44,764 bases of DNA from an uncultured Bacteriovoracaceae bacterium (lineage in GTDB: Bacteria > Bdellovibrionota > Bacteriovoracia > Bacteriovoracales > Bacteriovoracaceae): the NCBI GenBank assembly GCA_964012805.1, contig CAXGUD010000031.1, positions 1 through 44,764 of the forward strand, in the 5' to 3' direction. Within the stretch, counting starts at the first letter, position 1. Each line of letters begins with the position of its first letter. Below, piece by piece: positions 8,636 through 38,673 of the stretch. The notes below the pieces were generated by a model. It was not told the DNA's origin. It worked only from the letters and a program-made list of their open reading frames with translations, and ran no database searches. The position numbers were made by a program, and so were the translations under genes.

Positions 8636-10789
8636 GTGACATCTAGCAAAGAAAAACAAAGTAAAAAAGAAGAGTTTGTTCAGGGCGTAGGTGGACTGGC
8701 TCAAAAGCCTTCCTTTAAAAAATCGGAAAAGTTCTTCAATAGAGAGGTATCTTGGCTTGAATTCAACCAAAGAGTGTTGGACCAAAGTACTAGTGACAAA
8801 ACCCCTCTCTTAGAAAGGCTCAGGTTTTGTGACATTTTTATTAGCAATTTAGATGAATTTTATATGAAAAGGGTTGGAAGGCTTAGAAACAAGTTTCTTT
8901 CACCTATTTCCTACCAATCAGTTGATGGATTGAGTCCTGGAGAGCAGCTAACTCAAATAAGAAAAAGGGTTACTGAGCAAATGGTTTTAATGAACCAGAC
9001 ACTCAATGAACTAATTTACCCTGCTCTTAAAAATGAGGGTATAAAGCTCGCTAAGTGGGAAGATGTAGGTGTAGAGTCAAAAAAAAGGTTATCTGAAACT
9101 TTTAAAAACTCGATTTTTCCAATATTGACCCCACTAGCAGTCGATTATGGGCATCCGTTCCCGTTTATTTCAAACCTTTCTAAATCTCTTGGTGTTTGTC
9201 TTTTACACCCATCAAGTCAGGAAAAAGTTTTCTCAAGGGTCAAAATCCCAACAGAAATTCCTCAATGGTACTTTGTGGAATCTGACGGAAAGACAGAAAC
9301 TTATATGAATGTTGAAGAGGTTGTCCTTGGAAATTTGGAAATGCTTTTTCCGGGAACTAAAATTCTCGATAAACTTATCTTTCGCGTGACGAGGAACTCT
9401 GATTATGGTGCAGATGAAGATGGTGCCTTAGACCTTAAAGAGCACATCGAAGAGGGGCTAAGAGAGCAGAAGTTTTCTCCTGTTATTAGGCTTGAGCATT
9501 CAGGACAAACAAAAGACTCCTGGATTTTGGATTATATTACAAATGAATTGGAGCTCGATGCAGAAAACGTTTACGAGATGCACTCCTTACCTAATTATAC
9601 AAAATTTGATGAATTAATAAAAATTGATAAACCTCATTTAAAATTCAGACCATGGTCTCCGAAAACGCCTAGAGACTTTGTTGATAATAAGGCCAATATC
9701 TTTCACAAGATTAAGGGGAAAGATATTGTTGTTCACCACCCTTATGAGAGTTTTTCCTCGTCCGTGGAGCGTTTCATTGAAACCGCTGCCAATGATCCTA
9801 AAGTTTTGGCCATTAAAATAACCCTTTATAGAACCACCTTGAATTCTAAAATTGTTGAATCTCTTATTTTTGCTGCTCAAAATGGAAAGCAGGTAGCGTG
9901 CCTTGTTGAGCTAAAGGCCCGCTTTGAAGAAGAGCAGAATATGAGGCTCACCGAAAAGCTTGAAAAAGAAGGTATTCATGTTATCACTGGTATGGTTGGT
10001 CTAAAAACTCATTCAAAAATGTGTTTGGTCGTAAGAAGAGACCACGATAAGGTCACAACTTACGCTCACCTGGGGACTGGAAACTACAATCCGATTACCT
10101 CAAAACTTTACACCGATTTAGGTTTGTTTACTTGTCGAGAGGATATCACGAGAGAAGTTATGGAGGTTTTCAACTTCCTTACAGGTTTTTCTCAGAAAAA
10201 GGATTACGACACCCTTTTAGTAGCTCCTATAAATATAAAGAAAAAGTTTGTTGAACTTATCAATAAAGAAGTTGAAGCAAAGAAGGAAACAGGTCATGGG
10301 CACATTGTTGCCAAGATGAACTCTCTTCAGGACCCGGATATTATTGAGGCCTTATATAAAGCTTCAAAAGCAGGGGTGAAAATTGAGCTTATAGTAAGAG
10401 GGTTTTGTTGCCTTAAACCAGGGATTGAGGGGCTTAGCGAAAATATTGAGGTCACCTCTATCATAGGCCGGTTTTTAGAGCATTCTAGAATATATTATTT
10501 TAGCGGCGGTAAGAAAAACCCTATGGAGGGTACCATTTATATAGGCTCAGCTGATTGGATGTGGCGGAACTTAATGGGAAGAGTGGAAGTTATGACTCCT
10601 CTTCTTTCAGATGAAGTGAAATCAGTTGCCTGGCATACCTTAAAAGTTAACCTTGAAGACGAGTTTTCCTCATGGGTGCTGACTCCAAATGGAAAATATG
10701 AAAAGAAAAAGAAAAGCACGTCTAAAAAAGGGAAGTGTATAGGCACTCACGAAATTCTCATGAGAGAGATTGAAAAGAGTGCTGATTAA
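8636..10789 (+). CDS. ppk1: Polyphosphate kinase 1 (paralog A)
   Basis: NREVSWLEFNQRVL, NLDEFYMKRV, HPFPFISN, HHPYESF, KITLYRT, ELKARF, LKTHSK (phospho-His), AHLGTGNYN, RFLEHSR and GSADWM. GTG start with GGAGG RBS. Confidence 0.97.
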   Translation: MTSSKEKQSKKEEFVQGVGGLAQKPSFKKSEKFFNREVSWLEFNQRVLDQSTSDKTPLLERLRFCDIFISNLDEFYMKRVGRLRNKFLSPISYQSVDGLSPGEQLTQIRKRVTEQMVLMNQTLNELIYPALKNEGIKLAKWEDVGVESKKRLSETFKNSIFPILTPLAVDYGHPFPFISNLSKSLGVCLLHPSSQEKVFSRVKIPTEIPQWYFVESDGKTETYMNVEEVVLGNLEMLFPGTKILDKLIFRVTRNSDYGADEDGALDLKEHIEEGLREQKFSPVIRLEHSGQTKDSWILDYITNELELDAENVYEMHSLPNYTKFDELIKIDKPHLKFRPWSPKTPRDFVDNKANIFHKIKGKDIVVHHPYESFSSSVERFIETAANDPKVLAIKITLYRTTLNSKIVESLIFAAQNGKQVACLVELKARFEEEQNMRLTEKLEKEGIHVITGMVGLKTHSKMCLVVRRDHDKVTTYAHLGTGNYNPITSKLYTDLGLFTCREDITREVMEVFNFLTGFSQKKDYDTLLVAPINIKKKFVELINKEVEAKKETGHGHIVAKMNSLQDPDIIEALYKASKAGVKIELIVRGFCCLKPGIEGLSENIEVTSIIGRFLEHSRIYYFSGGKKNPMEGTIYIGSADWMWRNLMGRVEVMTPLLSDEVKSVAWHTLKVNLEDEFSSWVLTPNGKYEKKKKSTSKKGKCIGTHEILMREIEKSAD

Positions 10790-10858
10790 AAGAAACCTTT
10801 TAGCAGACAGAATGATTCTTAAAGAATTTAAACTTAAAAAAAATGAGAGGGCCATTTA

Positions 10859-11386
10859 ATGGGAACGGAAATATTTACTAAAGCGGCAAGTGCTAACCCT
10901 TCTAATTTGGCCATTCAATATGATCTTCAAAGCTTGGTTATTTTATTAGGCCACACATTTCTTATAGGGGCCTTTCTGTGCATCATAACCTATTTTTCAA
11001 ATAGACACCTTCTTAAAGACCCAAAAGAGCCTTCTGAAGAGAAAATAAACCTTATCTTGGGAACAATGAACATCCTTTACCTTTGTATGGGCCTTTCTTG
11101 CGTGATGATTCTAGTCAATAATAACCTCGCTCGGGCCTTTGCTATCGGAGCTGCTATCGCTCTTGTAAGATTTAGAATTAAACTCGGGAAAAGTTCAGCT
11201 AATTCAAATATTCTTTTTAGTATCGTCTGTGGTATTGCTTGTGGCCTCAATGAGTTAACCTTGGCGTGGTTGTCCGCAGGAGCTTACTTTTTAATAACTC
11301 TTCTTGTTAGGATTGTGACGGGTTCCATTCAGAAAAAAGTTGTAAAAAATAACAATGATAAAGTAAGTGAGATAAGTCCCACTTAA
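10859..11386 (+). CDS. DUF4956-family membrane protein (short form)
   Basis: Family signature VMILVNNNLARAFAIGAAIALVRFR followed by LFSIVCGIACG; about 5 hydrophobic segments. Confidence 0.8.
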   Translation: MGTEIFTKAASANPSNLAIQYDLQSLVILLGHTFLIGAFLCIITYFSNRHLLKDPKEPSEEKINLILGTMNILYLCMGLSCVMILVNNNLARAFAIGAAIALVRFRIKLGKSSANSNILFSIVCGIACGLNELTLAWLSAGAYFLITLLVRIVTGSIQKKVVKNNNDKVSEISPT

Positions 11387-11537
11387 ATGGATTTTTTATT
11401 TTAGGATTCCTTTAACTCAGTTAGTTGAAAAGGGCCATTCCAAAAAAAATAGTTCACATAAAATACTGATTTTTAACCATTATCTAAAGTTTTTAGCTAA
11501 ACCTCTCTTTTTCTTTTTACATTGATGGAAAAAATTG

Positions 11538-11555
11538 GAATTTATACATAAATTC
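11538..11555. promoter_or_regulatory. Candidate operator palindrome upstream of the pyrophosphatase gene
   Basis: Perfect 8-2-8 inverted repeat gaatttat-ac-ataaattc ending 15 nt before ATG 11571. The region is AT-rich, so chance is not excluded. Confidence 0.35.
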
Positions 11556-11570
11556 AAAGGATTCCTAGAG

Positions 11571-12725
11571 ATGTTAAGAATTAAAAAACTCTTTTTTATT
11601 TTGCTCATATTTTCGTTTTTGCCTTCTTCTTTTGCTCTCATAAAAATGAACTTGGAAGAAAACCCTCTTTATTCAGATAGAGAACCATTGAAAGGAGCCG
11701 AAGCGTGGTTTTTGGTTGAAGTACCAGGTGGTACAAATGAAAAATATGAGTATAGAAGAACTTCTGGAAGGATCGTTCTAGATAGGGTCTTATGCCCGAG
11801 ACAAGTTCCTGGATCATCCCAGGTCATTAAAGATTTCCCTGCAAATTATGGAGTCATGCCCGGTATATTTAATCGTGATGGGGACCCTGTTGACTTGATG
11901 GTTTTGGGAAGTGAAAGAGAGTATAAAAAGGCCCTTTTAAATGGGGAGAAAAAAGCAAAAAGAATCCGGGTTATTGGCCTTATTAAATTGCAGGAGTGTG
12001 ACTCTTTACCATGCCTTAAAAGCCAGGACTGGGTAAATGATTGGAAGGTTTTAGGTGTGGACCCTAGAGATCAAAAATATAAAGATATTTTTAATATTAC
12101 TGACCTTGGTGCACATGAAGTGAAAAAACTAAACTTCTTTTGGTCTAATTATAAGGGGCATAGAAAGTTAAAGGACGGAAAATGGCACCCTTTGGCCCGT
12201 GTTACTGAGAATGGAGGGGTTGAAGAGTCCCTCAAGTTTATGAAGGGTTTTAAAAAGATAAATAAGAGTGAGAGAAAGAAAGAAATTTTGGCCTGCCAAA
12301 ATGTTTATAAAGAAGTCATTGAAAGAAAAGAAAACTTTTTAAAAGAGGGAACACCTCCTATTAACAAAGCGTTTCTTTCCTGTTTAGGGCGAGTCATCCC
12401 AAAACATTTCTTTAAGAATCAAAAGAATTTTTCTTTTTATGGCCAATATAGCGCTTACCAATTTTTAAAAGGAAAATTAAAGGATAAAACACCTGGGTTA
12501 AGTTTGGAGAATTCTTTAAAAGTGATGGAGAAGAGGAAGTTTGATTTGAAAACTTATTATCGCTTTGTCTTTAAAAACCCTAAAGGATCTCTTGATAATA
12601 TTCTTTATGATTGGATAAAAACAAAAAATCGAAGGCATGGGTGCCTTGAGGGGACTGGAAGTCAATTTTATGACTTATCTCCTGTCGTAAATAATAAGGC
12701 CTTTAGACCAGTAGATGTTTTATAA
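11571..12725 (+). CDS. Family I inorganic pyrophosphatase with signal peptide and C-terminal extension
   Basis: VEVP..NEKYE, LDR, FPANYG, DGDPVD, D-W-K and FWSNYK match family I PPase active-site motifs. MLRIKKLFFILLIFSFLPSSFA is a Sec-type signal peptide. Start refined to ATG 11571 (ORF track 11535). Confidence 0.85.
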   Translation: MLRIKKLFFILLIFSFLPSSFALIKMNLEENPLYSDREPLKGAEAWFLVEVPGGTNEKYEYRRTSGRIVLDRVLCPRQVPGSSQVIKDFPANYGVMPGIFNRDGDPVDLMVLGSEREYKKALLNGEKKAKRIRVIGLIKLQECDSLPCLKSQDWVNDWKVLGVDPRDQKYKDIFNITDLGAHEVKKLNFFWSNYKGHRKLKDGKWHPLARVTENGGVEESLKFMKGFKKINKSERKKEILACQNVYKEVIERKENFLKEGTPPINKAFLSCLGRVIPKHFFKNQKNFSFYGQYSAYQFLKGKLKDKTPGLSLENSLKVMEKRKFDLKTYYRFVFKNPKGSLDNILYDWIKTKNRRHGCLEGTGSQFYDLSPVVNNKAFRPVDVL

Positions 12726-12745
12726 AAAATGAAAGAAAAGAGAGG

Positions 12746-13843
12746 ATGGAAATGAAAATATTTAAAAAAAGAAAGTTTTTTTTAGCTCTACTTACAGGAA
12801 CTTTTCTAATGGGAAGTTTTCAAAGTGAGGCCTTCTCAAACGAGTTTAATTATATAGCTCAAAACAAAGTTGAGGGAACTCTCTTAAAGTCAGAAATGAA
12901 ATACCACGAGTTAGCAGCTCATATTATACCAAGTAATATTGACGATCTGACATTGGAATTAGAGGCCTTTACGGAGGACACTTTGCCTCACGAAGCTAAA
13001 CTTCTGAGAAAAAGTGTTGGTAAATTAAGGTCCTATTTAGAGCTTTTTATCTTTGCTTACCCTACTTATGGTGGAGAAGATCCATTAAGGAAAGCGAGAA
13101 AAGTACTTGATTCAGGTTATGAGGGTTTAGGAAATTTTAAAGACCTTTTTGATATAAAAGGGGTTTCGGTCTCTAGCCTTGATAAATCACCCTATGATAT
13201 GAAAGAGGTCTCTAAAAGAAGAAACATCGCTTTAAAGTGGAAAGAAAAGTATGCTAAGAAGATTCTTTCTTTAAAAACTCTTCATTACTTAAAAAATCCA
13301 ATCCCGTCTTACATTGAGGATCGTAAAGAAAAGCATTTACCGAAATATTATTGGAGAATCGTAGATTTTGAACCTCAAATAGAGGAAACAGCTTACTCTA
13401 ATTTTCTTCTTTTGGGAGCGGACCTTCTAGAAGAATCTCTAGCAGATTACCCTGAAGTTTTAAAAATTGACGAAATTATTCCCTACGAAAATCAAGAGGC
13501 ATTTCATGACCTTAGGAAAAAAGTCAGATCTGTTTTAAAATTAAAGAGTTATTTTAAAGGTCTATGGCCAAAATCGTGTTCAGAGTCTAACGAAGCTGCT
13601 TTGACCAAAAAAATGGTCAGTAAGTTTGGAGACCTGAATGATAAATTGGTTGCTCTTAAAAATTTAGAGGAGCAATTGGATAAGAGGAGACTTGGGGCAA
13701 CTAAAAAGAAGGAGCTTCAAAAAGCGATTAAAGCAAAGACTACCTTAATCGATAGTGAATGGCTTACGTTAAAGAAATGGATTAAAGCTAATTTAATTGA
13801 TTCTCAAATAGAAGGTCTTAGTGAGTGCCTAAGGGAAAGCTAA
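12746..13843 (+). CDS. CHAD-domain (polyphosphate-binding) protein with signal peptide
   Basis: Two CHAD half-repeats: PHEAKLLRKSVGKLRSYLELF...LGNFKD and FHDLRKKVRSVL...FGDLND. Helical and Lys-rich. The N-terminus KKRKFFLALLTGTFLMGSFQSEAFS resembles a signal peptide. Confidence 0.78.
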   Translation: MEMKIFKKRKFFLALLTGTFLMGSFQSEAFSNEFNYIAQNKVEGTLLKSEMKYHELAAHIIPSNIDDLTLELEAFTEDTLPHEAKLLRKSVGKLRSYLELFIFAYPTYGGEDPLRKARKVLDSGYEGLGNFKDLFDIKGVSVSSLDKSPYDMKEVSKRRNIALKWKEKYAKKILSLKTLHYLKNPIPSYIEDRKEKHLPKYYWRIVDFEPQIEETAYSNFLLLGADLLEESLADYPEVLKIDEIIPYENQEAFHDLRKKVRSVLKLKSYFKGLWPKSCSESNEAALTKKMVSKFGDLNDKLVALKNLEEQLDKRRLGATKKKELQKAIKAKTTLIDSEWLTLKKWIKANLIDSQIEGLSECLRES

Positions 13844-13874
13844 AACTCAGACCTTCACAAATAAGGAGGCTCTT

Positions 13875-14693
13875 TTGGCCACTTATGTTGTGGGAGATGT
13901 CCAGGGCTGCTTTAAAACCCTGGAAAGGCTTCTAGATAAAATAAACTTTGACCCCCAAAAAGACTTTCTCTGGTTTATCGGAGATCTTGTTAATGTTGGA
14001 AAAAATTCTTTAAAGGCCCTTAAATGGGCCTATAAAAATAGGGATTCTTGCAATCTTTTAATCGGAAATCACGAACTAAACCTCCTTTGTATTGCCTATG
14101 GACTGGCAGAACCTCACGATGATGACACCTTAAATGATGTTTTGGAGCACAATAAACGCGATTTGTGGCTTGATTGGATTAGAACGAGACCTCTCATTCA
14201 CGAAGAGAATGATTATTTCCTAGTTCATGCAGGTGTTCACCCCAATTGGAGTTTAGAAGAGACCCGAAACGTGGCCAAACATGTTGAGGTGGCCTTAAGA
14301 GGCCCTGATTATCTTGAGTACCTCACAAAGTGGAAAAAAAAGTTTTTCAAGAAATGGGAAGAGGACCTTGGTGAGAAAAAAAGAATTGCAACAGCACTTA
14401 ATATAATGACCAAGATGAGGTTTTTAGATCAAGATAACCATCTAGTTAAAAATGTTAAAGGTGAACTTCAAAACGCTCCTGAAGACTTGACTCCATGGTT
14501 CCGTCTTCTAGATTCTTCATTTAAAAATAAAAAGCTTCTCTTTGGCCATTGGTCAGCAATTGGAGTTCATCAAGAAAAAAATATAACAGGCCTTGATAGC
14601 GGTGCTGTTTGGGGAAGAGTTTTGACTGCCTATTGTCTTGAAACAGGTCATATCTCCCAAATGGCGGCCCACAAGAAAGATTTGCCTGATTAA
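13875..14693 (+). CDS. apaH: Symmetrical bis(5'-nucleosyl)-tetraphosphatase (diadenosine tetraphosphatase)
   Basis: MATYVVGDVQGC, GDLVNVG, GNHE, VHAG, MRF, PWF, FGHWSA and LDSGAVWG. TTG start with AAGGAGG RBS. Confidence 0.92.
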   Translation: MATYVVGDVQGCFKTLERLLDKINFDPQKDFLWFIGDLVNVGKNSLKALKWAYKNRDSCNLLIGNHELNLLCIAYGLAEPHDDDTLNDVLEHNKRDLWLDWIRTRPLIHEENDYFLVHAGVHPNWSLEETRNVAKHVEVALRGPDYLEYLTKWKKKFFKKWEEDLGEKKRIATALNIMTKMRFLDQDNHLVKNVKGELQNAPEDLTPWFRLLDSSFKNKKLLFGHWSAIGVHQEKNITGLDSGAVWGRVLTAYCLETGHISQMAAHKKDLPD

Positions 14694-15703
14694 TTAAAGA
14701 ACTCCCAAATCTTAAATTGAATGTGCTTAAGAGACGTTCCTTTTTGGCAATTGACTTTAAAAAGTCTTAGGTAGTTACTTTTCTTTAACGTCGATTCACT
14801 AAAGACATAGATTGATTTTCCATCTTGATCATAAGTTATGGCCTCAATTTGAGCTCCATCAAACCTTGGAAAGCGGTATCTAGTGGAGTAATTTCGTGGA
14901 AACGGTTTAAAAGGTTCTTTCCCTTTATTTATTTTGTATTCTATTCCGTGCTTCAGTGTCGCCAAAGTAAATTTATCACCCTCTGGAGAAATCGTGGCAC
15001 CCGTAACAAAGCTTGCTTTTGGTTTTAACCTCGCTTTTTTTTGGTTTTTTTTAAAAAGAAACGTATTGTAATAACCAATCTTTTTTACATTATTTTTTTT
15101 AGGGTCAAGCTCAAAGATAAAGGTCTTTCCTTTATTTTTAGGATACTTTTCCCAAGTCAATCTATGGGCTTTTGTAAAGAGGTAGAACTTTTGAGCAAAT
15201 TTATGGAATATAAGTGCTTCAGAGTTATGAGCTTCTTTTAAGTCGAAGGTGTACTTTTTCCAGTTTTTTAATTTAACATGACCTTTTTTCTGGGCCTCTT
15301 TCGAAAAAGGGTTTGGTTCTGGAACTTCATATATTGTGACGTAAGTTCTCGTTAAATCGTTATTTCCGATGTCTCCAATATAAAGGCAATCTCCCTCACT
15401 TTTTAGGCATGGCCCAAATGACATATCTTCGTAATCTCTATTTAGAGCACCTTTGAGTTTAAACCTTCCAAGCCTTTTTCCGTTTAAGTGAAAAGCGATA
15501 AACCTAGCTCCATCACCTGCATCGTTATGACCCCAAAAGACTTTTGGATAAGACCTAGAAAGGGCAAGCCCGGAGACTTCTTTCATGGATTTACGACCAA
15601 TTTTTGTGACAATTTCTGTATGCTCACAATCATTAGCGAAAAGAGTTGTCCAGTTAAAGAAGATAAAAACTAGGGATAAATTCCATTTTTTTAAAAGCAT
15701 CAT
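14690..15703 (-). CDS. Secreted beta-propeller protein of unknown function (phytase-like/SdiA-regulated-like)
   Basis: Signal peptide ending TLFA. Blade-start motifs EVSGL, DYEDM, NSEAL, VTGAT and QIEAI, plus conserved-looking HNDAGD and LYIGDIGNN. Function not assignable. Confidence 0.6.
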   Translation of the reverse strand: MMLLKKWNLSLVFIFFNWTTLFANDCEHTEIVTKIGRKSMKEVSGLALSRSYPKVFWGHNDAGDGARFIAFHLNGKRLGRFKLKGALNRDYEDMSFGPCLKSEGDCLYIGDIGNNDLTRTYVTIYEVPEPNPFSKEAQKKGHVKLKNWKKYTFDLKEAHNSEALIFHKFAQKFYLFTKAHRLTWEKYPKNKGKTFIFELDPKKNNVKKIGYYNTFLFKKNQKKARLKPKASFVTGATISPEGDKFTLATLKHGIEYKINKGKEPFKPFPRNYSTRYRFPRFDGAQIEAITYDQDGKSIYVFSESTLKKSNYLRLFKVNCQKGTSLKHIQFKIWEFFN

Positions 15704-16558
15704 TTATTCTTTTCCCTTCTTTTTAAAAATAAAGGAGGGCATTTTTTCTATATAGCGGTTTAGGTTTAAATCTTTTTCCCCTAATTCTTTTTCATCCTCG
15801 TCATCTTCTTTTTGTGTCTTTATCCTACTTAAGACTTTACAGAAGGATTCTAAAGACTCTTTCTCTTTTTCTATATCAACGTTTGGTCCTTCAGCTTCAA
15901 TTTCATAAGTTGTTTTTAATTCTTTTTCAGGTCCTTGCTCAATAGTTTTTCCAAGAATAAATTTAAGCCTTTTTCCACTTTTTAAAGGGATTTTTCTTTT
16001 AAGTCTAATCTTTTTATTCGTGTGGGAGGGGATGAAAATAAAATTTCCTTCATTTTCAATACTTGAAAATAGGTCATCTCTTCCTTTAAAGTCAAGAGAT
16101 CTAATTTGGAGGTCAAAGTCTAAGGCAAGATAGAGTGGGATAATTTGGTTTGATTGAAGGTATTTGAACATTTCAAACCCTTTAAAGAGAATAACTCTAA
16201 TAAGCTCTGGGTTTTTCGATTCAAAAACTTGACTTTTTTTCCAAGTGTAATTTTTGTCACCACACTTGAAAAAACGCTTTTCTATATTTTTAGTAACCTG
16301 AACAACAGTTTTCTTTTTGGAGTTTTTAAGCCGAAACTTAAAACCCTTTTTTTCAAATAAAAAATCTTTTCCATTAAAGGCTTCGATATAAAGGTCAAAG
16401 CGTTCACTAAAGGCCGGAGGAAAAAAGGGTTTTAGCTCCTCAAATTGCTTTTTTTCAAGAGAAAACCTTAATTCGCTTCTGCCCTCTAAGATTGAAGTTA
16501 GTGAAAGAAAAAAGAAAATTAATATGGGAAAGACCCACTTTTTACAAAGAGGTAACAT
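15704..16558 (-). CDS. CYTH/triphosphate tunnel metalloenzyme-like protein with signal peptide
   Basis: Motifs occur in CYTH order: RSELRF (ExExKF-like), RFDLYIE, GFKFRLK, VQVTK, KKIR, YEIEAE. Hydrophobic N-terminal signal ending ILEG. The sequence is divergent and the call is by motif pattern only. Confidence 0.6.
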   Translation of the reverse strand: MLPLCKKWVFPILIFFFLSLTSILEGRSELRFSLEKKQFEELKPFFPPAFSERFDLYIEAFNGKDFLFEKKGFKFRLKNSKKKTVVQVTKNIEKRFFKCGDKNYTWKKSQVFESKNPELIRVILFKGFEMFKYLQSNQIIPLYLALDFDLQIRSLDFKGRDDLFSSIENEGNFIFIPSHTNKKIRLKRKIPLKSGKRLKFILGKTIEQGPEKELKTTYEIEAEGPNVDIEKEKESLESFCKVLSRIKTQKEDDEDEKELGEKDLNLNRYIEKMPSFIFKKKGKE

Positions 16559-16600
16559 AGAAAAATTGTCGGAAAAAAGAAGTGATATCTTGATAAAGAT

Positions 16601-16627
16601 GGCCCTAAAAACTTAACTTTTAGGACC
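16601..16627 (-). terminator. Probable terminator hairpin downstream of the Na/Pi symporter gene
   Basis: The minus strand reads GGUCCUAAAA-GUUAAGU-UUUUAGGGCC (10-bp stem with one G-U pair) followed by aucuuuauc, 13 nt after the stop. Confidence 0.5.
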
Positions 16628-16640
16628 AAGCAAATAAAAT

Positions 16641-17801
16641 TTATTGGGTTAAGAAAACACAAGTTAGTGGTAGGACAAAGAAGACAATTCCTACGTAGAG
16701 AAAACCAATATACTTCCTTTCGGCCGCATGATGAGCGAGCGTTTCTGAAAGGTAAATAGGCAATCTTCTCATCTTTTGGCTAGGAAACCAGATGAGCGTT
16801 CCAAGTATATTAAAGATGAAGTGAACAAGTGCGATGGAAAGTCCGGCAACATTACCTGTTAAAGAGGCAAGGAGTGCTGTTGTCGTTGTTCCAATATTGG
16901 CCCCGATAGTAACAGGAAGTATTGAGCCTAAAGAGAGAAGCCCTGCTCCCGCCATAGGAACTAAGAGGCTCGTCGTAATAGAGCTTGATTGAACGCTTAT
17001 CGTAAGAAGTGTTCCAAATAAGACAGCTGTATAAGGGTTTTTAGAAAGAAGTTTTTCAATGATTTGACCCTTATTATTTTCAACGACTTTTTTCATCACT
17101 TTAACAATCATCGTAAGAGCAAAAATTGTTAGAACGGCTCCTAAAAGGATAAGAGCGGATCCAGCAGCATTGCCTGTCAATCCAAGAGTGTCTATAACAA
17201 AAGCTTTTGAGGACTTTGCAAAAGGCTTAATGGCCGCTTTTAATGGAGAAGAAAACTTATATCCAGAAACATTACCATAAAGAGATATGGCCCAACTGCT
17301 TGCCAATTTTCCTATAAAGCCAGTCATAAGCTCTATGGGAAGGATAACAAGAACTGAGAGGATATTGAAAAAGTCGTGGATTGTTGCCGCTGAAAAGGAT
17401 TGTTTAAAAGACTTTGGGTCTTTAAGGTAAGCAAGAGAAACAATTGTATTCGTAACAGAAGTTCCCAAGTTCGCCCCCATAATCATAGGGATGGCACCTT
17501 GTATAGTAAGAGCTCCTCCAGAGACAAGTCCGACAATGATAGATGTTGTTGTCGATGAACTTTGAAGAAGTGATGTCGCCAATATTCCCGAAAGAAGTGA
17601 CATGATAGGGTTGTCTGTAAAATTAAAAAGGGTTTTGGCAAAACCGCCACCCATAAACTTTATCCCTGATGTCAGTATTTTAATACCGACTAGAAAGATG
17701 AATAGAAGTAAAACGACAGATAAGACTCTAAGTATTAAATCAGTGGCCTGATTCACTTCTTGAGTCGTTTGATTTGTTTCTATTGGTTTACTTGCTTTCA
17801 A
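16641..17801 (-). CDS. nptA: Na+/Pi cotransporter (NptA/SLC34 family)
   Basis: Two repeat motifs, LLQSSSTTTS...IMGANLGTSVT and VQSSSITTS...IGANIGTTTT; FSAATIHDFFN; multiple TM helices. TTG start with GGGAG RBS. Confidence 0.92.
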   Translation of the reverse strand: MKASKPIETNQTTQEVNQATDLILRVLSVVLLLFIFLVGIKILTSGIKFMGGGFAKTLFNFTDNPIMSLLSGILATSLLQSSSTTTSIIVGLVSGGALTIQGAIPMIMGANLGTSVTNTIVSLAYLKDPKSFKQSFSAATIHDFFNILSVLVILPIELMTGFIGKLASSWAISLYGNVSGYKFSSPLKAAIKPFAKSSKAFVIDTLGLTGNAAGSALILLGAVLTIFALTMIVKVMKKVVENNKGQIIEKLLSKNPYTAVLFGTLLTISVQSSSITTSLLVPMAGAGLLSLGSILPVTIGANIGTTTTALLASLTGNVAGLSIALVHFIFNILGTLIWFPSQKMRRLPIYLSETLAHHAAERKYIGFLYVGIVFFVLPLTCVFLTQ

Positions 17802-17817
17802 AAGATACTCCCAGAGA

Positions 17818-17856
17818 AAGTCTATAATCTTAAAAAACTTAAGTGTTTATAGACTT
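17818..17856. promoter_or_regulatory. Inverted repeat/hairpin just upstream of the nptA ribosome-binding site
   Basis: aagtctataa (17818-17827) is the exact reverse complement of ttatagactt (17847-17856), with an inner cttaa/ttaag stem. Confidence 0.45.
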
Positions 17857-18067
17857 AAAAAGCACTTCTGAACACCTCTTTTGTTGCACGTTGTAATAAA
17901 AACATTAGAAAATTAGGAAAAAGAAATGATTTTTGTTGTTTAAAATAATCTAAAATATCAAATAAAAAATATTGATAATAATATTTATTTAATCGAATAG
18001 AGATTTATCTAAGATTGATTTTTTGAAAGACGAAAAGGGTTGTGGAAGTCAGTTTTTGGAAGCAATT

Positions 18068-20221
18068 ATGATGAATAAAAAAGCAAAAAGGTCGAGACGT
18101 CCTAGTGTTGGGAAACGCTCTGGCGTAAAAAAGAAGACCAACCGAAAAATAGATACAAACCCGGATCATTACGTAAGCCGTGATATTTCTTGGCTTCATT
18201 TCAATGAAAGAGTCCTTCATGAAGCGGTAGACAAAAGAACACCTTTACTTGAGAGGTTAAGGTTTTGTGACATTTTCACCAGTAATATGGATGAGTTTTT
18301 TATTCAAAGAATAGGGACACTAAAAAATCAAATTGATAGAGGTTTTAAAATAAATACACTTGATGGAGTCCCTCCTGCAGAACAGTATCAAAGAATTCGA
18401 AAGATGATTTTAAAGCAAAATAAACTTCTTAAAGAATGTCTGGAGAATTCTATCATCCCTGACCTTCTAAAAGAGGGGATCACTTTTTTGAAGTGGAAGG
18501 ATTTAAAAGAATCTGAGAAAGAACAGGTATCCCAGCACTTTAGGTTAAGCATTCTTCCAATTCTTACTCCTCTGGCAGTAGATTATGGTCACCCCTTTCC
18601 CTTTATTTCTAATTTATCGAAATCTCTTGGTATTAGTCTTTTGAAACCTAATACTGGGGAAAAGATCTTTTCTAGAGTTAAGATTCCTGATGAAATATCC
18701 CAATGGGAAATTGTAAGGGAAGGAAAAGATGGAATTTCTTTTATTAATTTGGAAGAAATATTAGTCAATAACCTCCACTTTCTTTTTCCAGGGACTGAGA
18801 TAGTCGATAATATGATTTTTAGAGTTACCAGGAACATTGACCTTGAGGAAGAAGATGAATATGCAGAGGACTTGAAAGAGGTTATTGAAGAGGAGTTAAG
18901 GGAGAAAAAGTTTTCACCGGTTATCCGACTCGAAATTGAAGAGAAGAGTGAGAACTGGATAAGTCATTATATTTCAAGTGAGTTGGAACTTTCTGAAGAA
19001 GATATTTATGGAATGGGGTCTTTGGCAAATTATACTTCTTTTGGAGAAATCACAAGAATAAATAGGCCTAAATTGAAATACAAAAATTGGACCCCAAGAA
19101 CTCATTCAGATTTTTTAGATGAAAAGGCCAATATCTTTAATAAAATCAAATCTAAAGATATATTTGTTCACCACCCTTATGAAAGCTTCAACAACTCTGT
19201 TGAGAGGTTTATTGAAACCGCCGCTTATGATCCTAAGGTGTATGCCATAAAGATCACTCTTTACAGGACAACCATTAATTCAAAAATTATTGATTCTCTT
19301 GTATACGCAGCTCAAAATGGTAAGCAGGTCGCTTGTTTGGTTGAGTTGAAGGCCCGTTTTGAAGAGGAGAAAAATATCCGCCTTTCCGAAAAACTAGAAA
19401 ATGAAGGGGTCCATGTTATAGGCGGAATGGTGGGGCTTAAAACACACACCAAAATGTGTATGGTTGTAAGGCAGGACTCAGATAAAGTTACAACTTATGT
19501 CCACCTGGGGACAGGAAATTATAACCCAGTTACTTCCAAGCTCTACAGTGATATCAGCTTTTTTACTTGCCGAGAAAATGTGGCAGACGAAATCGTTCAG
19601 GCCTTTAATTATTTAACAGGTCTTTCTTTAAAAAAGGATTATAAAACTCTGCTCATTGCTCCTCTCACTATGAAAAAGAGGTTTTGTGAGCTCATTTATG
19701 ATGAAATAAAGTTTAAAAAACAAGGAAAGGAAGGCCTCATTATTGCAAAAATGAATGCTTTAGAAGATACCGATATTATTGAGGCCTTGTATATGGCTTC
19801 TATGAATGGTGTAAAGGTGAAGCTCATAGTAAGAGGGTTTTGTTGTTTGAGACCAGGAGTAGAGGGCCTAAGTGATAATATTGAAGTTATTTCTGTTATT
19901 GGACGCTTCTTGGAGCATTCCAGAATCTTTTATTTCAGTGGGGGTCAAAAGGATCGTCTTAAAGGAAAGTTCTTTATAGGCTCGCCAGATTGGATGCATA
20001 GAAATCAAAACCTTAGAGTTGAAGTAGCAACTCCACTTTTCACAGATGAGTCTAAAAAAGAGGCCTGGAATATTCTGACTGTAAACCTAAATGATAAAAG
20101 GTCTACCTGGAAGATGGCCCCTGATGGTACTTATACCCAAAATAAACCTGAGAGTGGGAAAGAAGAAAGGGGAACTCACCTTCAATTAATGAAAGATTCT
20201 GAAGAAAATAACTTTAGTTAA
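18068..20221 (+). CDS. ppk1: Polyphosphate kinase 1 (paralog B)
   Basis: SRDISWLHFNERVL, NMDEFF, HPFPFISN, HHPYESF, ELKARF, LKTHTK, VHLGTGNYN, RFLEHSR and GSPDWM. Start tentatively ATG 18068/18071 (ORF track TTG 18023). Confidence 0.96.
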   Translation: MMNKKAKRSRRPSVGKRSGVKKKTNRKIDTNPDHYVSRDISWLHFNERVLHEAVDKRTPLLERLRFCDIFTSNMDEFFIQRIGTLKNQIDRGFKINTLDGVPPAEQYQRIRKMILKQNKLLKECLENSIIPDLLKEGITFLKWKDLKESEKEQVSQHFRLSILPILTPLAVDYGHPFPFISNLSKSLGISLLKPNTGEKIFSRVKIPDEISQWEIVREGKDGISFINLEEILVNNLHFLFPGTEIVDNMIFRVTRNIDLEEEDEYAEDLKEVIEEELREKKFSPVIRLEIEEKSENWISHYISSELELSEEDIYGMGSLANYTSFGEITRINRPKLKYKNWTPRTHSDFLDEKANIFNKIKSKDIFVHHPYESFNNSVERFIETAAYDPKVYAIKITLYRTTINSKIIDSLVYAAQNGKQVACLVELKARFEEEKNIRLSEKLENEGVHVIGGMVGLKTHTKMCMVVRQDSDKVTTYVHLGTGNYNPVTSKLYSDISFFTCRENVADEIVQAFNYLTGLSLKKDYKTLLIAPLTMKKRFCELIYDEIKFKKQGKEGLIIAKMNALEDTDIIEALYMASMNGVKVKLIVRGFCCLRPGVEGLSDNIEVISVIGRFLEHSRIFYFSGGQKDRLKGKFFIGSPDWMHRNQNLRVEVATPLFTDESKKEAWNILTVNLNDKRSTWKMAPDGTYTQNKPESGKEERGTHLQLMKDSEENNFS

Positions 20222-20329: not shown

Positions 20330-20989
20330 ATGGGGAATGAATTAGGCGACTTGTTTTACTCTCAAAGAATGAAAATGGTTGAAGATCAAATTCTGAAGAG
20401 GGGGGCGGTTTCTTCGAAAGTTGTTAAAGCTTTTTTAAATGTTCCTCGTCATTATTTCGTACCTAGTGATATAAGAAAAATGGCCTATGAAGATTCACCT
20501 CTTCCGATAGGTTTAGATCAAACAATTTCTCAACCCTATATTGTTGCCCTAATGACAGAATTTCTGGAAGTCAAAAAAAACCACAAAGTTCTTGAGGTTG
20601 GTACAGGGTCTGGTTATCAAACGGCTATTTTAAACGAGCTTAGCAAAAGTATTTATTCAGTAGAAATAAGGGAGGCGTTTTCCATGAAAGTTCAGACCCT
20701 TTTTGATAAGATGGATATAAAAGGAGTTCAATTTAAAGTTGGAGATGGGAGTCATGGTTGGAAAGAGGAGGCCCCTTTTGATCGAATTATCGTGACCGCT
20801 GCCCCCAAAAAAGTCCCAGAGGAACTTCTTAAACAATTGGCGCCTTCTGGAAAAATGATAATACCCTTAGGTGGTGATTTTCAAAACCTTTTCCTCTTTG
20901 AAAAAAATAGCAAAAGCGAGTTAACTCAAAAGCTTCTCCTTCCCGTTGTTTTTGTGCCAATGGTTCAGGGGCAAATTTACACAAGATGA
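20330..20989 (+). CDS. pcm: Protein-L-isoaspartate(D-aspartate) O-methyltransferase
   Basis: VPRHYFVP, AYEDSPLPIG, QTISQP, VLEVGTGSGYQ, APFDRIIVTAA and FVPM. Confidence 0.95.
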   Translation: MGNELGDLFYSQRMKMVEDQILKRGAVSSKVVKAFLNVPRHYFVPSDIRKMAYEDSPLPIGLDQTISQPYIVALMTEFLEVKKNHKVLEVGTGSGYQTAILNELSKSIYSVEIREAFSMKVQTLFDKMDIKGVQFKVGDGSHGWKEEAPFDRIIVTAAPKKVPEELLKQLAPSGKMIIPLGGDFQNLFLFEKNSKSELTQKLLLPVVFVPMVQGQIYTR

Positions 20990-34750: not shown

Positions 34751-35698
34751 ATGAGTAATGATGATGACTTTTCTGTTGGACTGAAAGAAAGTTATATAAA
34801 AATACATCTTGGTTATTTTATTCCGGATATTAAAATACCTCTTGCCCTTTATCTTCCTTTTAAGGGTAAAGTTATCGAAGTTGTTAAAGCGGGAACTCCT
34901 GGTTCACTCGATTTTTTTAAAAGAATGAAAAGTAATGGAATTTATTATGTTTATATTAAAAAAACGGATGGTACTGTCTGGAAAAATTGGAAAAATGTAA
35001 GGCATCCTGAAATTGGAGGGTTTAGCTCTTTTTCAAGCGGGCCTGGGAATAAGATTAAGTCCAATCTTGCTATTTATAAGGCAAGGGCCTTTGAAAAGGT
35101 TAAGATTGTACCAAGTGCTTTCAAAGAACCCGAAAGCTATTTAGATGAAGTTGATAAAAGGTACCACAAAATTTTATGTGACCAACAACTTATTTGGTTT
35201 TTCAATGAAACATGGTCTGAGTCGCACCTTCTTTTTTCTGCTAAGTTGAGTCTTTTTTTCTTCCTTTTTCTTGAACAGGTAAGAAGTGAGCTTATGATTT
35301 ATGATGAGATGGGTATTCTTACCTTTTCCCTAGTTCACAATCTTGTAAGTCAGGGAATGAGAAATGATTTTAAGGGCAAGCCAGAAGATAGTACCCTTTA
35401 TTATTTAAACAAAAAGGATATCGCTATAGATAGTGGTATAAGCTCCCTTTTTCAATTGAATAAACAATTTTGTGAAATGAAAAGGGAAACGAATTTTAAG
35501 TTTGATCCCTCGATGCCAAAAGGATATCAGGTTTTTTCTTTATTAAGAGATCTCATTGAAATCTTTGATAGAAGTAAAGTAGATATCCAAAAAAGGCAGG
35601 AAACCAGCTTTCTTTTGCTTAAAAGAGAAAATAGGTACGAGCTATCGCTTTTAGGTCATTTAGAAAGGTTCTTGAAAAAGGTTAGGTTGTTTCCATGA
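34751..35698 (+). CDS. Hypothetical protein, possibly a degenerate HD-GYP-like domain
   Basis: The architecture resembles HD-GYP proteins with an N-terminal beta domain. SLVHNL sits at the position of LLHDI, and no HHE or GYP motif is present. ATGA overlap with the next gene. Confidence 0.45.
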   Translation: MSNDDDFSVGLKESYIKIHLGYFIPDIKIPLALYLPFKGKVIEVVKAGTPGSLDFFKRMKSNGIYYVYIKKTDGTVWKNWKNVRHPEIGGFSSFSSGPGNKIKSNLAIYKARAFEKVKIVPSAFKEPESYLDEVDKRYHKILCDQQLIWFFNETWSESHLLFSAKLSLFFFLFLEQVRSELMIYDEMGILTFSLVHNLVSQGMRNDFKGKPEDSTLYYLNKKDIAIDSGISSLFQLNKQFCEMKRETNFKFDPSMPKGYQVFSLLRDLIEIFDRSKVDIQKRQETSFLLLKRENRYELSLLGHLERFLKKVRLFP

Positions 35699-37173
35699 AA
35701 GAACAAACGATTAATTTATATGAAGCCTTAGAAAAATTGCCTTTAGAAAAAATAGCTAAAGGAATCCCCTTAAAAGTATATGATAATTTCAATAATTTAA
35801 TTTGGGGAAATGATTTAGGCGGGGAGGAGGACTTAAAAATCTTTCCAATTACTACAAATAGTGGAATACCCTTAGCTTCTGTCCAAACTCGAGAAAGTCA
35901 TAAAGGCTTATTGAGAAAAATCATCCTAAAGGAAATTTCACGTTTTGTAAAAGAGGAAATTCAGGAATCAAGAAGAGATGAAGTCTCTATTTTCTACTCT
36001 GATCTGGAGAATCTAACATTTAATAAAACATTTCTGGATTCTTCATTTACAGGAAAGGAAGTCGAGAAAGATATCATTGATATACTTTATGCACTTAAAA
36101 AGTATTTTCCTTATGAAGGTTGCAATATTCATATTACCAATGGTGAGAATAGTCTTGAAGAGTTTTTAGAGATATCTAGTGATGGTGAAAAAAAGAAAGG
36201 AGAGTATTGGGACTTTCCCTTAAAAGAAGTCTCCGCAATCGCTTTCAACACTCAAACAGTTTACCATTCTAATGATGCTACCAATGACCCCTATTTTGGG
36301 CAATTAGTTGGATCAATTAAGAAATGCGATATTAAAAATTTCATTGTTGTTCCTTTAACCATTTTTGATAATAAGCAAGGTGCCTTAGCCTTTTATAATG
36401 AATGCTTCTTGAGAAAAGGTGAAAGTTTTAATCCTTCTTGGCACTTTAAGAATCTTATTAATCTTATTGCTTATAAAATTTTTTTAAAGAGGAGAGGGAT
36501 TGAAGTTTTTAAAAAAAGAAATGAAAAAAAAATTACTAACCGTTTTATAGGACCAAAAATAACGAACCACACTGTTCTTCAAAAAAAAATAAAATCCACA
36601 ACGTATCCACAGGAAAGAACTATCATAGCTATGTATGGTGGAATTCATAAATTTTTAGAAGGTGGAAATAAAATTCAAAGAAAAACGATGAGTTCTCTAT
36701 TACAATTTCATAATAGTAATGTTTCAAAGGTGGTAAACTCATTTGGTGGGACTGTCCATCAATTTAATAACGAACATTTTTTGGCATTTTGGAATTTTTA
36801 TGAAGATATGGATAGATTTGATCATTTTGCTTCAAGAGCAGCAATAAATTTAGTCCATTTTGCTCATGATTATTTACACCTTCATTTTAAAAGTTATGGA
36901 TTCCGAGACTTTCATTTCTCAGTTGGTTTAGTTAAAGAGAAAGTACAAATTGATTCTATTAGATCAAGAGAGGAAAACTTTCCCCTTATTCATGGAAATA
37001 TTATTGATACAACTAAGCAAATTTTTGAAGGGGCGCCAAATTGTACGGCTTATTTTCATGAAAAGATAATCAACGAATTAGTAAAAAATGACCTGCCTCC
37101 TATGCGTAAATTGTTTAATGTAAAGTTGAGGGGAGAAGCCCAAGGGGCGAGAATTTTTTCTTATAAGATATAA
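35695..37173 (+). CDS. GAF domain plus degenerate class III adenylate/guanylate cyclase domain
   Basis: GAF: SNDATNDPYF...NFIVVPL...GALAFYN. Cyclase fold: AMYGGIHKF, GGTVHQFNNEHFLAFWN, SVGL, IHGNII, VKLRG. Catalytic residues are missing. Confidence 0.72.
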   Translation: MKEQTINLYEALEKLPLEKIAKGIPLKVYDNFNNLIWGNDLGGEEDLKIFPITTNSGIPLASVQTRESHKGLLRKIILKEISRFVKEEIQESRRDEVSIFYSDLENLTFNKTFLDSSFTGKEVEKDIIDILYALKKYFPYEGCNIHITNGENSLEEFLEISSDGEKKKGEYWDFPLKEVSAIAFNTQTVYHSNDATNDPYFGQLVGSIKKCDIKNFIVVPLTIFDNKQGALAFYNECFLRKGESFNPSWHFKNLINLIAYKIFLKRRGIEVFKKRNEKKITNRFIGPKITNHTVLQKKIKSTTYPQERTIIAMYGGIHKFLEGGNKIQRKTMSSLLQFHNSNVSKVVNSFGGTVHQFNNEHFLAFWNFYEDMDRFDHFASRAAINLVHFAHDYLHLHFKSYGFRDFHFSVGLVKEKVQIDSIRSREENFPLIHGNIIDTTKQIFEGAPNCTAYFHEKIINELVKNDLPPMRKLFNVKLRGEAQGARIFSYKI

Positions 37174-37206
37174 ACTTTTTAAATAGTTTGCTTAAGGAAT
37201 TCACTA

Positions 37207-38673
37207 ATGAGCTTTGAAACTATAAATAAAAAAGAGTTCCTTGAAGAGATTAATATTAAGAACCTTCTTAAAGGAATACCTCATGTTGTTTTAAATGATT
37301 CTGGCATACTCATTTCATCGGAGTCACCTGATTTGGTAAGTTCTATTTCTAAAAAAGAAATCCGGACTTCAAACCCTTCTCAAGGTCTTCTTATTGAAAT
37401 CCAAATCCAAGATGAGTATTTGGATATGCTAGAAAGTTTTCTTGCCCATTTGTGGTCATCTACATTCAAGTATGATGTTAGAAATGCTGAAGCCGAAATT
37501 GTTGAAATTTTAGGTAATGACTTTACAAGATTTTTTAGTGGTGATTTATTTAGAGAGAGGACTTCTTTAAATGTTCAGGTAAAGAAAGCTTTTTTTCTTC
37601 TTAAGTCACATATTCCAATTCAGGAATTCGCTCTCTTTTTTATTGATAGAAAAAAGGGACTAAAAGAATTTGCGAGGATTGGAGGACCAGAGGATGTCCA
37701 TAAAGTTTTACCTTTGGATGGTTCAAATCTAGAAAGCATCGCTGCCCTTAGCAAAAATTTTTACTTTGCACCTAACTGTAAAGAAGAGTATGTCTTTAAA
37801 AATCAACCAAACCTTGATTATAGTAACTACCTTTGTTTACCAATTTTTCAAGATGGTCTTGTTGTTGGTGTTTTGAGTCTCATTGACTACTTGGAAAAAG
37901 ATTGGAGTCAGGAAAACTTTAAAAAGGCGAAATTGTTTGCTCAACTTTTGGCTTGGGTCAAAATGAAGAAAGAAGGAAATGAAATTTTTCATGAAGAAAT
38001 TATTGAAGAAAGAGTCCCTATAAACTATTTATCTAAAAAAATGATTCGTGAAATAAATGAAGAGCCTCCAAAAAATATTGACGTGCATTGTATGTGGGTA
38101 AATATCAGAGGAGCAAAGGATATTTTTAAAGGAATTGATAATGAGGTTATAAAAGATTTTTATAATATGTATTACAGTACAGTCTTTGAGATTTGTGAAA
38201 GATATGAAGGGCAAGTTGATAATAGTTTAGGTGATACTATATCTGTTGTTTGGAATGCATTTGGAAAAGGCCCTCTATCAAAAAATCTTGTTATTGAATG
38301 TGCTCTTGAAATTCAGAAAGAAATATTTGTGACTCTGATTCCTTTTTTAAAAGAAAAGGGAATTAAAAGAATGGGGGTTGGAATAGGAGTTGATGAAGGT
38401 GAAGCATATGTAGGAAACTTCGGATCTTCTGAAGAGGTAAACTATTCTTCATTTGGGTTTTGTAAAAAAAATGCAGAAATATTAAGTAAGATTGCTACTC
38501 CTGGGGAAATTCTTTTTCCTGAAAGTTTTTTTAATGGTGTTGATAAAGAGGATTTGCCAGGAGTGAAAAAAGTCATTTCTGGAGTCGGTTTATGTGGTGG
38601 AAGGCAAAGTGAGAAGATATTTAGTGTTCAACCAGTTGAGACTAAGGATTACACTAAAATAAAATCATATTAA
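37207..38673 (+). CDS. GAF domain plus degenerate class III adenylate/guanylate cyclase domain
   Basis: GAF: NYLCLPI...VVGVLSL. Cyclase fold: MWVNIRG, GQVDNSLGD, GIGVDEGEAYVGNFGS, YSSFG, ATPGEIL. The N-terminus is similar to that of the upstream gene. Confidence 0.8.
   Translation: MSFETINKKEFLEEINIKNLLKGIPHVVLNDSGILISSESPDLVSSISKKEIRTSNPSQGLLIEIQIQDEYLDMLESFLAHLWSSTFKYDVRNAEAEIVEILGNDFTRFFSGDLFRERTSLNVQVKKAFFLLKSHIPIQEFALFFIDRKKGLKEFARIGGPEDVHKVLPLDGSNLESIAALSKNFYFAPNCKEEYVFKNQPNLDYSNYLCLPIFQDGLVVGVLSLIDYLEKDWSQENFKKAKLFAQLLAWVKMKKEGNEIFHEEIIEERVPINYLSKKMIREINEEPPKNIDVHCMWVNIRGAKDIFKGIDNEVIKDFYNMYYSTVFEICERYEGQVDNSLGDTISVVWNAFGKGPLSKNLVIECALEIQKEIFVTLIPFLKEKGIKRMGVGIGVDEGEAYVGNFGSSEEVNYSSFGFCKKNAEILSKIATPGEILFPESFFNGVDKEDLPGVKKVISGVGLCGGRQSEKIFSVQPVETKDYTKIKSY

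Follow-up and report, generated by a model that had tools for sequence, protein, structure and literature searches.

Why does a run of genes for predicted exported proteins lie between two polyphosphate kinase genes in an uncultured Bacteriovoracaceae bacterium, and do these genes form one system? The locus occupies positions 8636..20221 of a 44,764-nucleotide stretch (contig CAXGUD010000031.1, assembly GCA_964012805.1), which in its entirety is referred to here as the window. An earlier note on this DNA listed nine consecutive genes, and all nine open reading frames (ORFs) were found at the positions and strands given there: ppk1A, a DUF4956-family gene, a family I pyrophosphatase (PPase), a CHAD protein and apaH on the forward strand, a beta-propeller, a CYTH-like protein and nptA on the reverse strand, and ppk1B on the forward strand. 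Six or more phosphate-anhydride families are gathered within 11.6 kb. The predicted products suggest a genus-specific islet between duplicated ppk1 genes that would salvage phosphate (Pi) from polyphosphate (polyP), tripolyphosphate (PPPi) and pyrophosphate (PPi) outside the cytoplasm, for import by NptA and storage by PPK1, a reading to which we assign a probability of roughly 45%. Its newest elements are two protein families, an exported triphosphate-tunnel metalloenzyme (TTM, the CYTH-like protein) and an exported CHAD.

The host genome (G000) comprises 4.47 Mb, is 100% complete with 1.8% contamination and falls within the Bacteriovoracaceae group, in keeping with a 79% homologue that carries the label Halobacteriovoraceae. 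Metagenome runs containing the stretch were marine wherever labelled. Contigs from four independent marine metagenomes covered all 30 bins of the stretch and bridged the gene junctions, which rules out an artefact of assembly. All locus genes common to G000 and its congener G450 had ratios of nonsynonymous to synonymous substitution (dN/dS) of 0.03-0.13 and are under purifying selection. Curated family cut-offs were passed by ppk1A, ppk1B, apaH, nptA, the PPase and CHAD and missed by DUF4956 and the propeller, while the CYTH-like protein had no family match at all.

Predicted exported TTM, CHAD and pyrophosphatase

The TTM gene (15704..16558, reverse strand) has no Pfam match and was assigned by fold. 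Its AlphaFold (AF2) model (pLDDT 85.8) retrieved 85 Foldseek matches at E<=0.001 with TTMs on top, and it aligned to 2gfg with Z 15.1 (root-mean-square deviation 2.7 over 175 residues) and to YgiF with Z 14.0, showing the eight-stranded tunnel of CYTH/TTM proteins. Seven residues (E29, R53, D55, R76, K183, E219, and E221) were 85-99% conserved among 121 aligned relatives. The metal site 1 Glu, the C-terminal ExE and the tunnel Arg/Lys are all present, with residues mapped to AtTTM3 and YgiF by motif. The family comprises 139 clusters at 50% identity and was found in 4 of 150 genomes of the order with a single-protein query and in 10 of 400 genomes of the phylum with a profile. In two members (P0143 and P0160) a di-haem cytochrome c peroxidase (CCP_MauG) domain has an exported-type TTM fused to its C-terminus; such peroxidases are normally periplasmic.

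The CHAD gene (12746..13843, forward strand) scored 28.4 bits against PF05235 (cut-off 25.6). Its AF2 model (pLDDT 91.7) has the two four-helix bundles and central pore of the fold and aligned with 3e0s (CtCHAD; Z 18.4 over 274 residues), 6qv5 (RcCHAD; Z 16.6) and 6rn5 (PptA; Z 12.8), so that the CHAD and CYTH folds called in the earlier note were both recovered by modelling. Six CHAD chains headed the Foldseek list, all at E>0.001. A circular permutation, considered when repeat 1 matched repeat 2 of 6qv7 by profile, was ruled out by the structural alignments, all three of which were collinear. Two His-x2-basic-x3-basic motifs, H82/K85/K89 and H254/R257/R261, were invariant in 11 sequences, and the motif residues were invariant or at least 90% kept in 30. 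Their spacing is that of the polyP-binding His253/Arg256/Arg260 of CtCHAD, and passages of the same source describe CHAD as a specific polyP binder (PMC6537752). Exported CHADs were found in only 1 of 150 order genomes and occur in Bdellovibrionota, myxobacteria, Planctomycetota, and Verrucomicrobiota. Some of them (P0010, P0011, L026, L031, and L048) have an extra N-terminal domain of ~120 amino acids, which had no Pfam match in P0010.

The PPase gene (11571..12725, forward strand; PF00719, E 6e-21) probably starts at the ATG at 11571 in a frame open from 11535, and encodes 384 amino acids. In alignments to PDB structures it keeps the family I catalytic motif set including DxDPxD (E62, K70, E72, R84, Y105, D115/D117/D120, D169, K171, Y206, and K207, numbered in a 396-amino-acid frame), with one motif Asp replaced by Glu154. 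The catalytic motifs are therefore common to this protein and soluble family I PPases (PDB 2PRD, 1QEZ), to which the locus protein adds a signal-like N-terminus, Cys-bearing insertions and a C-terminal extension. The signal-like segment MLRIKKLFFILLIFSFLPSSFA is kept in P0019-P0021. Homologue searches returned only near-identical proteins, and predicted export of a motif-intact PPase is therefore known only from this species group. The protein is also homologous over its full length to a PPase-fold lipoprotein family that is found in most of the Bacteriovoracaceae and has lost DxDPxD; the locus protein is the motif-intact sister of that family. These lipoproteins (G000:C30:4426-5892, L054-L072, L173) have roughly 450-600 amino acids and a GxPQ-type motif in place of DxDPxD, and look like a conserved, unannotated pseudo-enzyme. 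A lipobox-like Cys was seen in all 21 examined, their genes often lie beside nuoB-like genes, and it was mostly through them that the PPase query matched 120 of 151 order genomes.

Signal peptides were predicted with hydropathy heuristics, one loose and one stricter. As the earlier note had proposed, four ORFs (PPase, CHAD, propeller, and TTM) have signal-like N-termini: all four passed the stricter test, and all 16 controls (canonical CHAD, PPase and VTC proteins of the cytoplasm) failed it. The same test was passed by 33% of the ORFs of G000, and four passes among nine genes are unremarkable in number (P=0.35); what is unusual is which families bear the signals, since CHAD, TTM and family I PPase proteins are normally intracellular. 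Conservation in homologues, on which the note's proposal hung, was also borne out. After 26 of the 139 TTM relatives had been set aside as fragments, fusions or non-Met starts, 107 of the remaining 113 full-length ones passed the loose test, against a background of 14% of internal windows and 56% of long ORFs of G000. Likewise, a signal- or lipoprotein-like N-terminus was identified by script and by eye in 24 of 27 CHAD loci, two others having none and one being ambiguous. Because signal-like N-termini recur across homologues and TTM occurs fused to a peroxidase domain, predicted export is a family trait of TTM and CHAD.

In the salvage reading, TTM, PPase and CHAD would leave via Sec to the periplasm or beyond. 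There CHAD would bind and concentrate polyP, TTM would cut PPPi or chain ends to PPi and Pi, and the PPase would hydrolyse PPi; NptA would then import Pi and PPK1 repolymerise it. The polyP would probably come from digested prey, as Bacteriovoracaceae are predators, or from marine dissolved polyP. The gene content of G000 is compatible with such a role. PstS, PitA, PPK2, family II PPase and PhoX were not found in this complete genome, nor was a small cytoplasmic family I PPase, and Pfam scans of 32 window ORFs gave no ppx, ppk2, pst, phoU, or phoBR families, as the earlier note had said. Without PstS and PitA, the two short NptA proteins look like the main Pi importers, and Pi entry probably rests on them. 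Since G000 also encodes an H+-PPase, the signal-bearing PPase need not be a housekeeping enzyme.

A recurring core in a patchy locus

The locus is syntenic in G450 at about 80% DNA identity. In a second congener, G451 (68% complete), ppk1B and the gene for a PhoU-type Na/Pi symporter point away from each other, and metagenome contig L109 carries a symporter related to that of G451, then TTM, then a convergent ppk1A, and no other gene of the cluster. In both, the PhoU-type symporter takes the place of nptA, which in the window (16641..17801, reverse strand; PF02690) encodes an NptA-type Na+/Pi symporter of the short form without PhoU domains and has a 73% paralogue on contig C15 of G000. The symporter beside TTM was thus swapped in place for another Na/Pi subtype while the core was kept across relatives. 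Joining G451 and L109 points to an ancestral core of ppk1A, TTM, Na/Pi symporter and ppk1B, to which DUF4956, PPase, CHAD, apaH and the propeller would be additions.

Outside the genus, 8 of 14 TTM loci with readable flanks had a phosphate-type neighbour. In six of them, drawn from two families, the gene immediately upstream encodes a phytase-like propeller of PF13449; a seventh has ppx and a metallophosphoesterase upstream, and the eighth (L045) has an exported CHAD downstream, a recurrence of the TTM-CHAD adjacency in a distant lineage. The 14 loci are kin in the tree and not independent draws. In L007, L008, L010, L127, L128 and L133 the propeller gene overlaps the start of the TTM gene, by 4 bp in five of the six, and this pair of PF13449 propeller and exported TTM is conserved as a unit across two families of Bdellovibrionota. 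The recurring core is therefore exported TTM with phosphate genes and, within the genus, a Na/Pi symporter and duplicated ppk1. Of the recurring linkage that the earlier note expected, the part concerning TTM stood, and the parts concerning CHAD (see below) and the propeller (none in 23 genomes) did not. In genus g25, one genome (G054) has the order ppk1-ppx-metallophosphoesterase and another (G040) the order ppx-metallophosphoesterase-TTM (loci L184 and L009). The link between TTM and ppk1 loci may therefore be older than the genus of the window, but ppk1 was not found in G040, nor TTM in G054.

A number of observations weigh against salvage. Every functional step in it is drawn from family knowledge, and the substrates of TTMs are many. 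The window TTM reads R27-S-E29-L-R31, with Arg at the first Glu of the ExE (Glu27 in 43% of the family), and the complete N-terminal ExE(xK) metal site 2 of YgiF/AtTTM3-type tripolyphosphatases is missing. According to passages of PMC4641920, the equivalent Glu-2 of AtTTM3, as mapped by motif, is required for PPPi hydrolysis, and the patch is conserved in many, not all, TTMs. Six of the 14 TTM loci outside the genus had no phosphate neighbour (a single genus supplies four of the six), a TTM paralogue on contig C81 of G000 had none either, and the link of PF13449 to phosphate rests on its name. A phosphate gene lay within 10 kb of an exported CHAD in only 4 of 27 GTDB loci (ppx in three, TTM in one), and ppk1, nptA, VTC and DUF4956 were absent near CHAD in all 27. 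In G450 a gap of 2.0 kb, with no Ns at the junction, takes out the PPase together with two-thirds of CHAD from its 5' end and leaves a 3' CHAD remnant, and CHAD, PPase and TTM were not found in the 68% of G451 that is available. The locus is transcribed in at least three directions, and a hairpin of 13 pairs (16600..16628, reverse strand), a possible terminator or processing site, lies between nptA and the TTM gene. Finally, G000 encodes PhoD and a PhoA-family lipoprotein, exported phosphatases which could have the same role; with such general enzymes present, the islet would be supplementary rather than essential.

The TTM evidence also bears on a different substrate. The exported TTM and its partners might act on organic triphosphates (NTPs and dNTPs) of lysed prey, or as nucleotide-processing effectors inside prey, with NptA recovering Pi and polyP not being the substrate. 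The seemingly incomplete metal-2 site fits this explanation, as do the top structural matches of TTM, among them putative adenylate cyclases and triphosphatases of RNA or thiamine, and the usual TTM partner, which is the PF13449 esterase-like propeller and not CHAD. However, the polyP-specific CHAD (PMC6537752) pairs with TTM both here and independently in L045, and the locus is flanked by two ppk1 genes. We regard a nucleotide substrate as unlikely.

The deletion in G450 raises the further question of whether there is a joint system at all, or whether secreted proteins and paralogues simply piled up between the ppk1 duplicates of a single lineage and do separate work. That view draws on the missing PPase and CHAD of G450, on the third of G000 ORFs that look exported, on stand-alone paralogues of DUF4956, TTM and nptA in G000, and on CHAD and propeller being mostly unlinked elsewhere. 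Nevertheless, drift is unlikely to assemble so many phosphate-anhydride families in so short a span, and the in-place swap of the Na/Pi subtype beside TTM and the distant TTM-CHAD adjacency also speak for joint function. On balance we consider chance accumulation unlikely. A fixed nine-gene relay along the lines of the earlier note is not supported, given the losses in G450, the three genes of L109 and an ApaH without a signal. The nine-gene set is patchy even in the closest relatives; it is a narrow, unstable assembly and not a conserved system, and CHAD and PPase are dispensable add-ons.

Duplicated ppk1, DUF4956 and the remaining genes

Both polyphosphate kinase genes, ppk1A (8636..10789, forward strand; TIGR03705, 770 bits) and ppk1B (18023..20221, forward strand; 751 bits), encode all four domains and the catalytic His motifs of PPK1, pass the TIGR03705 cut-off and share 59.7% identity. 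PPK1A, a predicted cytoplasmic enzyme, has the motifs HHPYES, HLGTGNY and EHSR, and its gene had a dN/dS of 0.049 against G450. The ppk1A and ppk1B clades form one group with support 100/100 in a tree of 27 rows, and by sequence the copies are sisters from a genus-level duplication. Among 151 genomes, only G000 has two full-length ppk1 genes. Elsewhere in the family, 17 of 20 ppk1 loci have ppx no more than two genes away, which is not so at this locus; the sole Ppx/GppA match of G000 sits on contig C42.

Directly behind ppk1A is the gene for a short, membrane-only DUF4956-family protein (10859..11386, forward strand; PF16316 E 0.0045, below cut-off), which aligns with full-length DUF4956 proteins, shares with them an invariant N-x-A-R...A...RFR motif and thus has the membrane core of the long members. 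No other gene of the locus is under stronger constraint (dN/dS of 0.028 against G450). A 65% paralogue lies on contig C6 of G000. In three of the five closest homologues a VTC polyP polymerase gene is directly upstream, and the other two stand alone; VTC was not found in G000, so the DUF4956 gene here has no VTC beside it. Searched against the PDB, the DUF4956 profile gave no match below E 0.07 and so no solved relative. Elsewhere (L082, L084, L085, L090, and L093), long DUF4956 genes are followed directly by genes that by eye resemble HlyD-type adaptors.

These two genes allow another arrangement, close to the periplasmic store that the earlier note had offered, in which PPK1A replaced VTC and feeds a DUF4956 protein that passes polyP out, exported CHAD coats the store, and TTM and PPase remobilise it. 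It is favoured by the VTC neighbours of the homologues and their absence from G000, by the strong constraint on DUF4956, by the two full-length ppk1 genes, and by the lack of ppx near this ppk1. On the other hand, ppk1A and DUF4956 are paired only in G000 and G450, L109 has ppk1A without DUF4956 behind it, and the copies on C6 and in G451, G143 and G076 stand alone. To our knowledge transport by DUF4956 has never been demonstrated. The absence of the usual VTC partner is thus a genuine hint in favour of the store proposal, a recurring pairing was not seen, and we find this arrangement quite improbable.

The remaining two genes have no demonstrated part in salvage. The predicted exported beta-propeller (14690..15703, reverse strand), placed in an SdiA-regulated/phytase-like neighbourhood by Atlas clusters (0.90-0.95), has a start codon that abuts the TTM stop codon. 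It reached E 0.024 and 15 bits against PF13449 (cut-off 27.6), short of the score required for this phytase-like family, of which G000 has no match. Homologues turned up in 23 of 150 genomes of the order, with no gene of the cluster lying closer to them than about 1.5 kb, and the propeller as a phosphate-linked gene found no support across 24 loci. ApaH (13875..14693, forward strand; NF001204, 290 bits), a cytoplasmic Ap4A hydrolase, has no signal peptide by the heuristic and is probably outside the exported relay. Promoter and terminator scans of the window remained at chance level (14 terminator-like sites versus 12.6 in shuffles, no excess), and the one match to a Pho-box-like pattern, with five mismatches, was not accepted as real. 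Beyond the locus, pcm (protein-L-isoaspartate methyltransferase; 20330-20989) follows ppk1B in G000, G450, and G451. Three tandem low-GC genes (about 0.32) lie at 34751-38673; one has a weak GAF match and two resemble degenerate nucleotide-cyclase domains by eye.

Known systems and biological meaning

The closest known counterparts are the cytoplasmic TTM-CHAD proteins and CHAD/ppk clusters, exemplified by Escherichia coli YgiF (5A60/5A61), Chlorobium CtCHAD (6QV7/6QVA), and Streptomyces PptA (6RN5), as described in passages of PMC6537752. The locus has the same two folds, the same His/Arg motif spacing and the same clustering with polyP kinases, but separate opposite-strand genes, signal-like N-termini and only 10-16% identity to the solved members. 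The terms "signal peptide" and "periplasm" do not occur in the text of that paper. By analogy, the locus would work like such clusters moved across the membrane. Ruegeria pomeroyi uses extracellular polyP via PhoX, PhoD and a 5'-nucleotidase (PMC9303572). It is a marine bacterium that hydrolyses polyP outside the cytoplasm for Pi, as predicted here, but instead of broad alkaline phosphatases the locus would use folds specific for anhydrides (TTM and a family I PPase) and a polyP binder, with NptA in place of Pst. A VTC-DUF4956-CotH accessory set is noted in passages of bioRxiv 10.1101/768473. In it, as at the locus, the gene for a DUF4956 membrane protein comes right after that for a polyP polymerase; unlike it, the locus has PPK1 as the polymerase, a short membrane-only DUF4956, and no CotH gene in the cluster, and it is not a member of that set. 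No description of the exported CHAD family, the exported TTM family or this cluster was found in the open-access literature, supplements excluded, and the searched passages of 10.1101/2025.01.14.632903, 10.1101/2025.04.09.648040, and PMC13318637 contain no mention of CYTH or CHAD.

A bolder extension, unlikely in our estimation, is that predators and particle degraders possess a dedicated exported polyP kit, in which CHAD captures and TTM cuts, stripping the polyP granules of prey and disarming its stress reserve; with duplicated PPK1 in the place of VTC beside DUF4956, polyP may then cycle across the inner membrane. As small, soluble proteins that can be assayed directly, members of the exported TTM and CHAD families are candidates for a dedicated turnover of polyP outside the cytoplasm, and the locus is a natural setting in which to ask whether any polyP polymerase can partner DUF4956. 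Such turnover would bear on marine phosphorus recycling and on the fate of prey polyP in predators.

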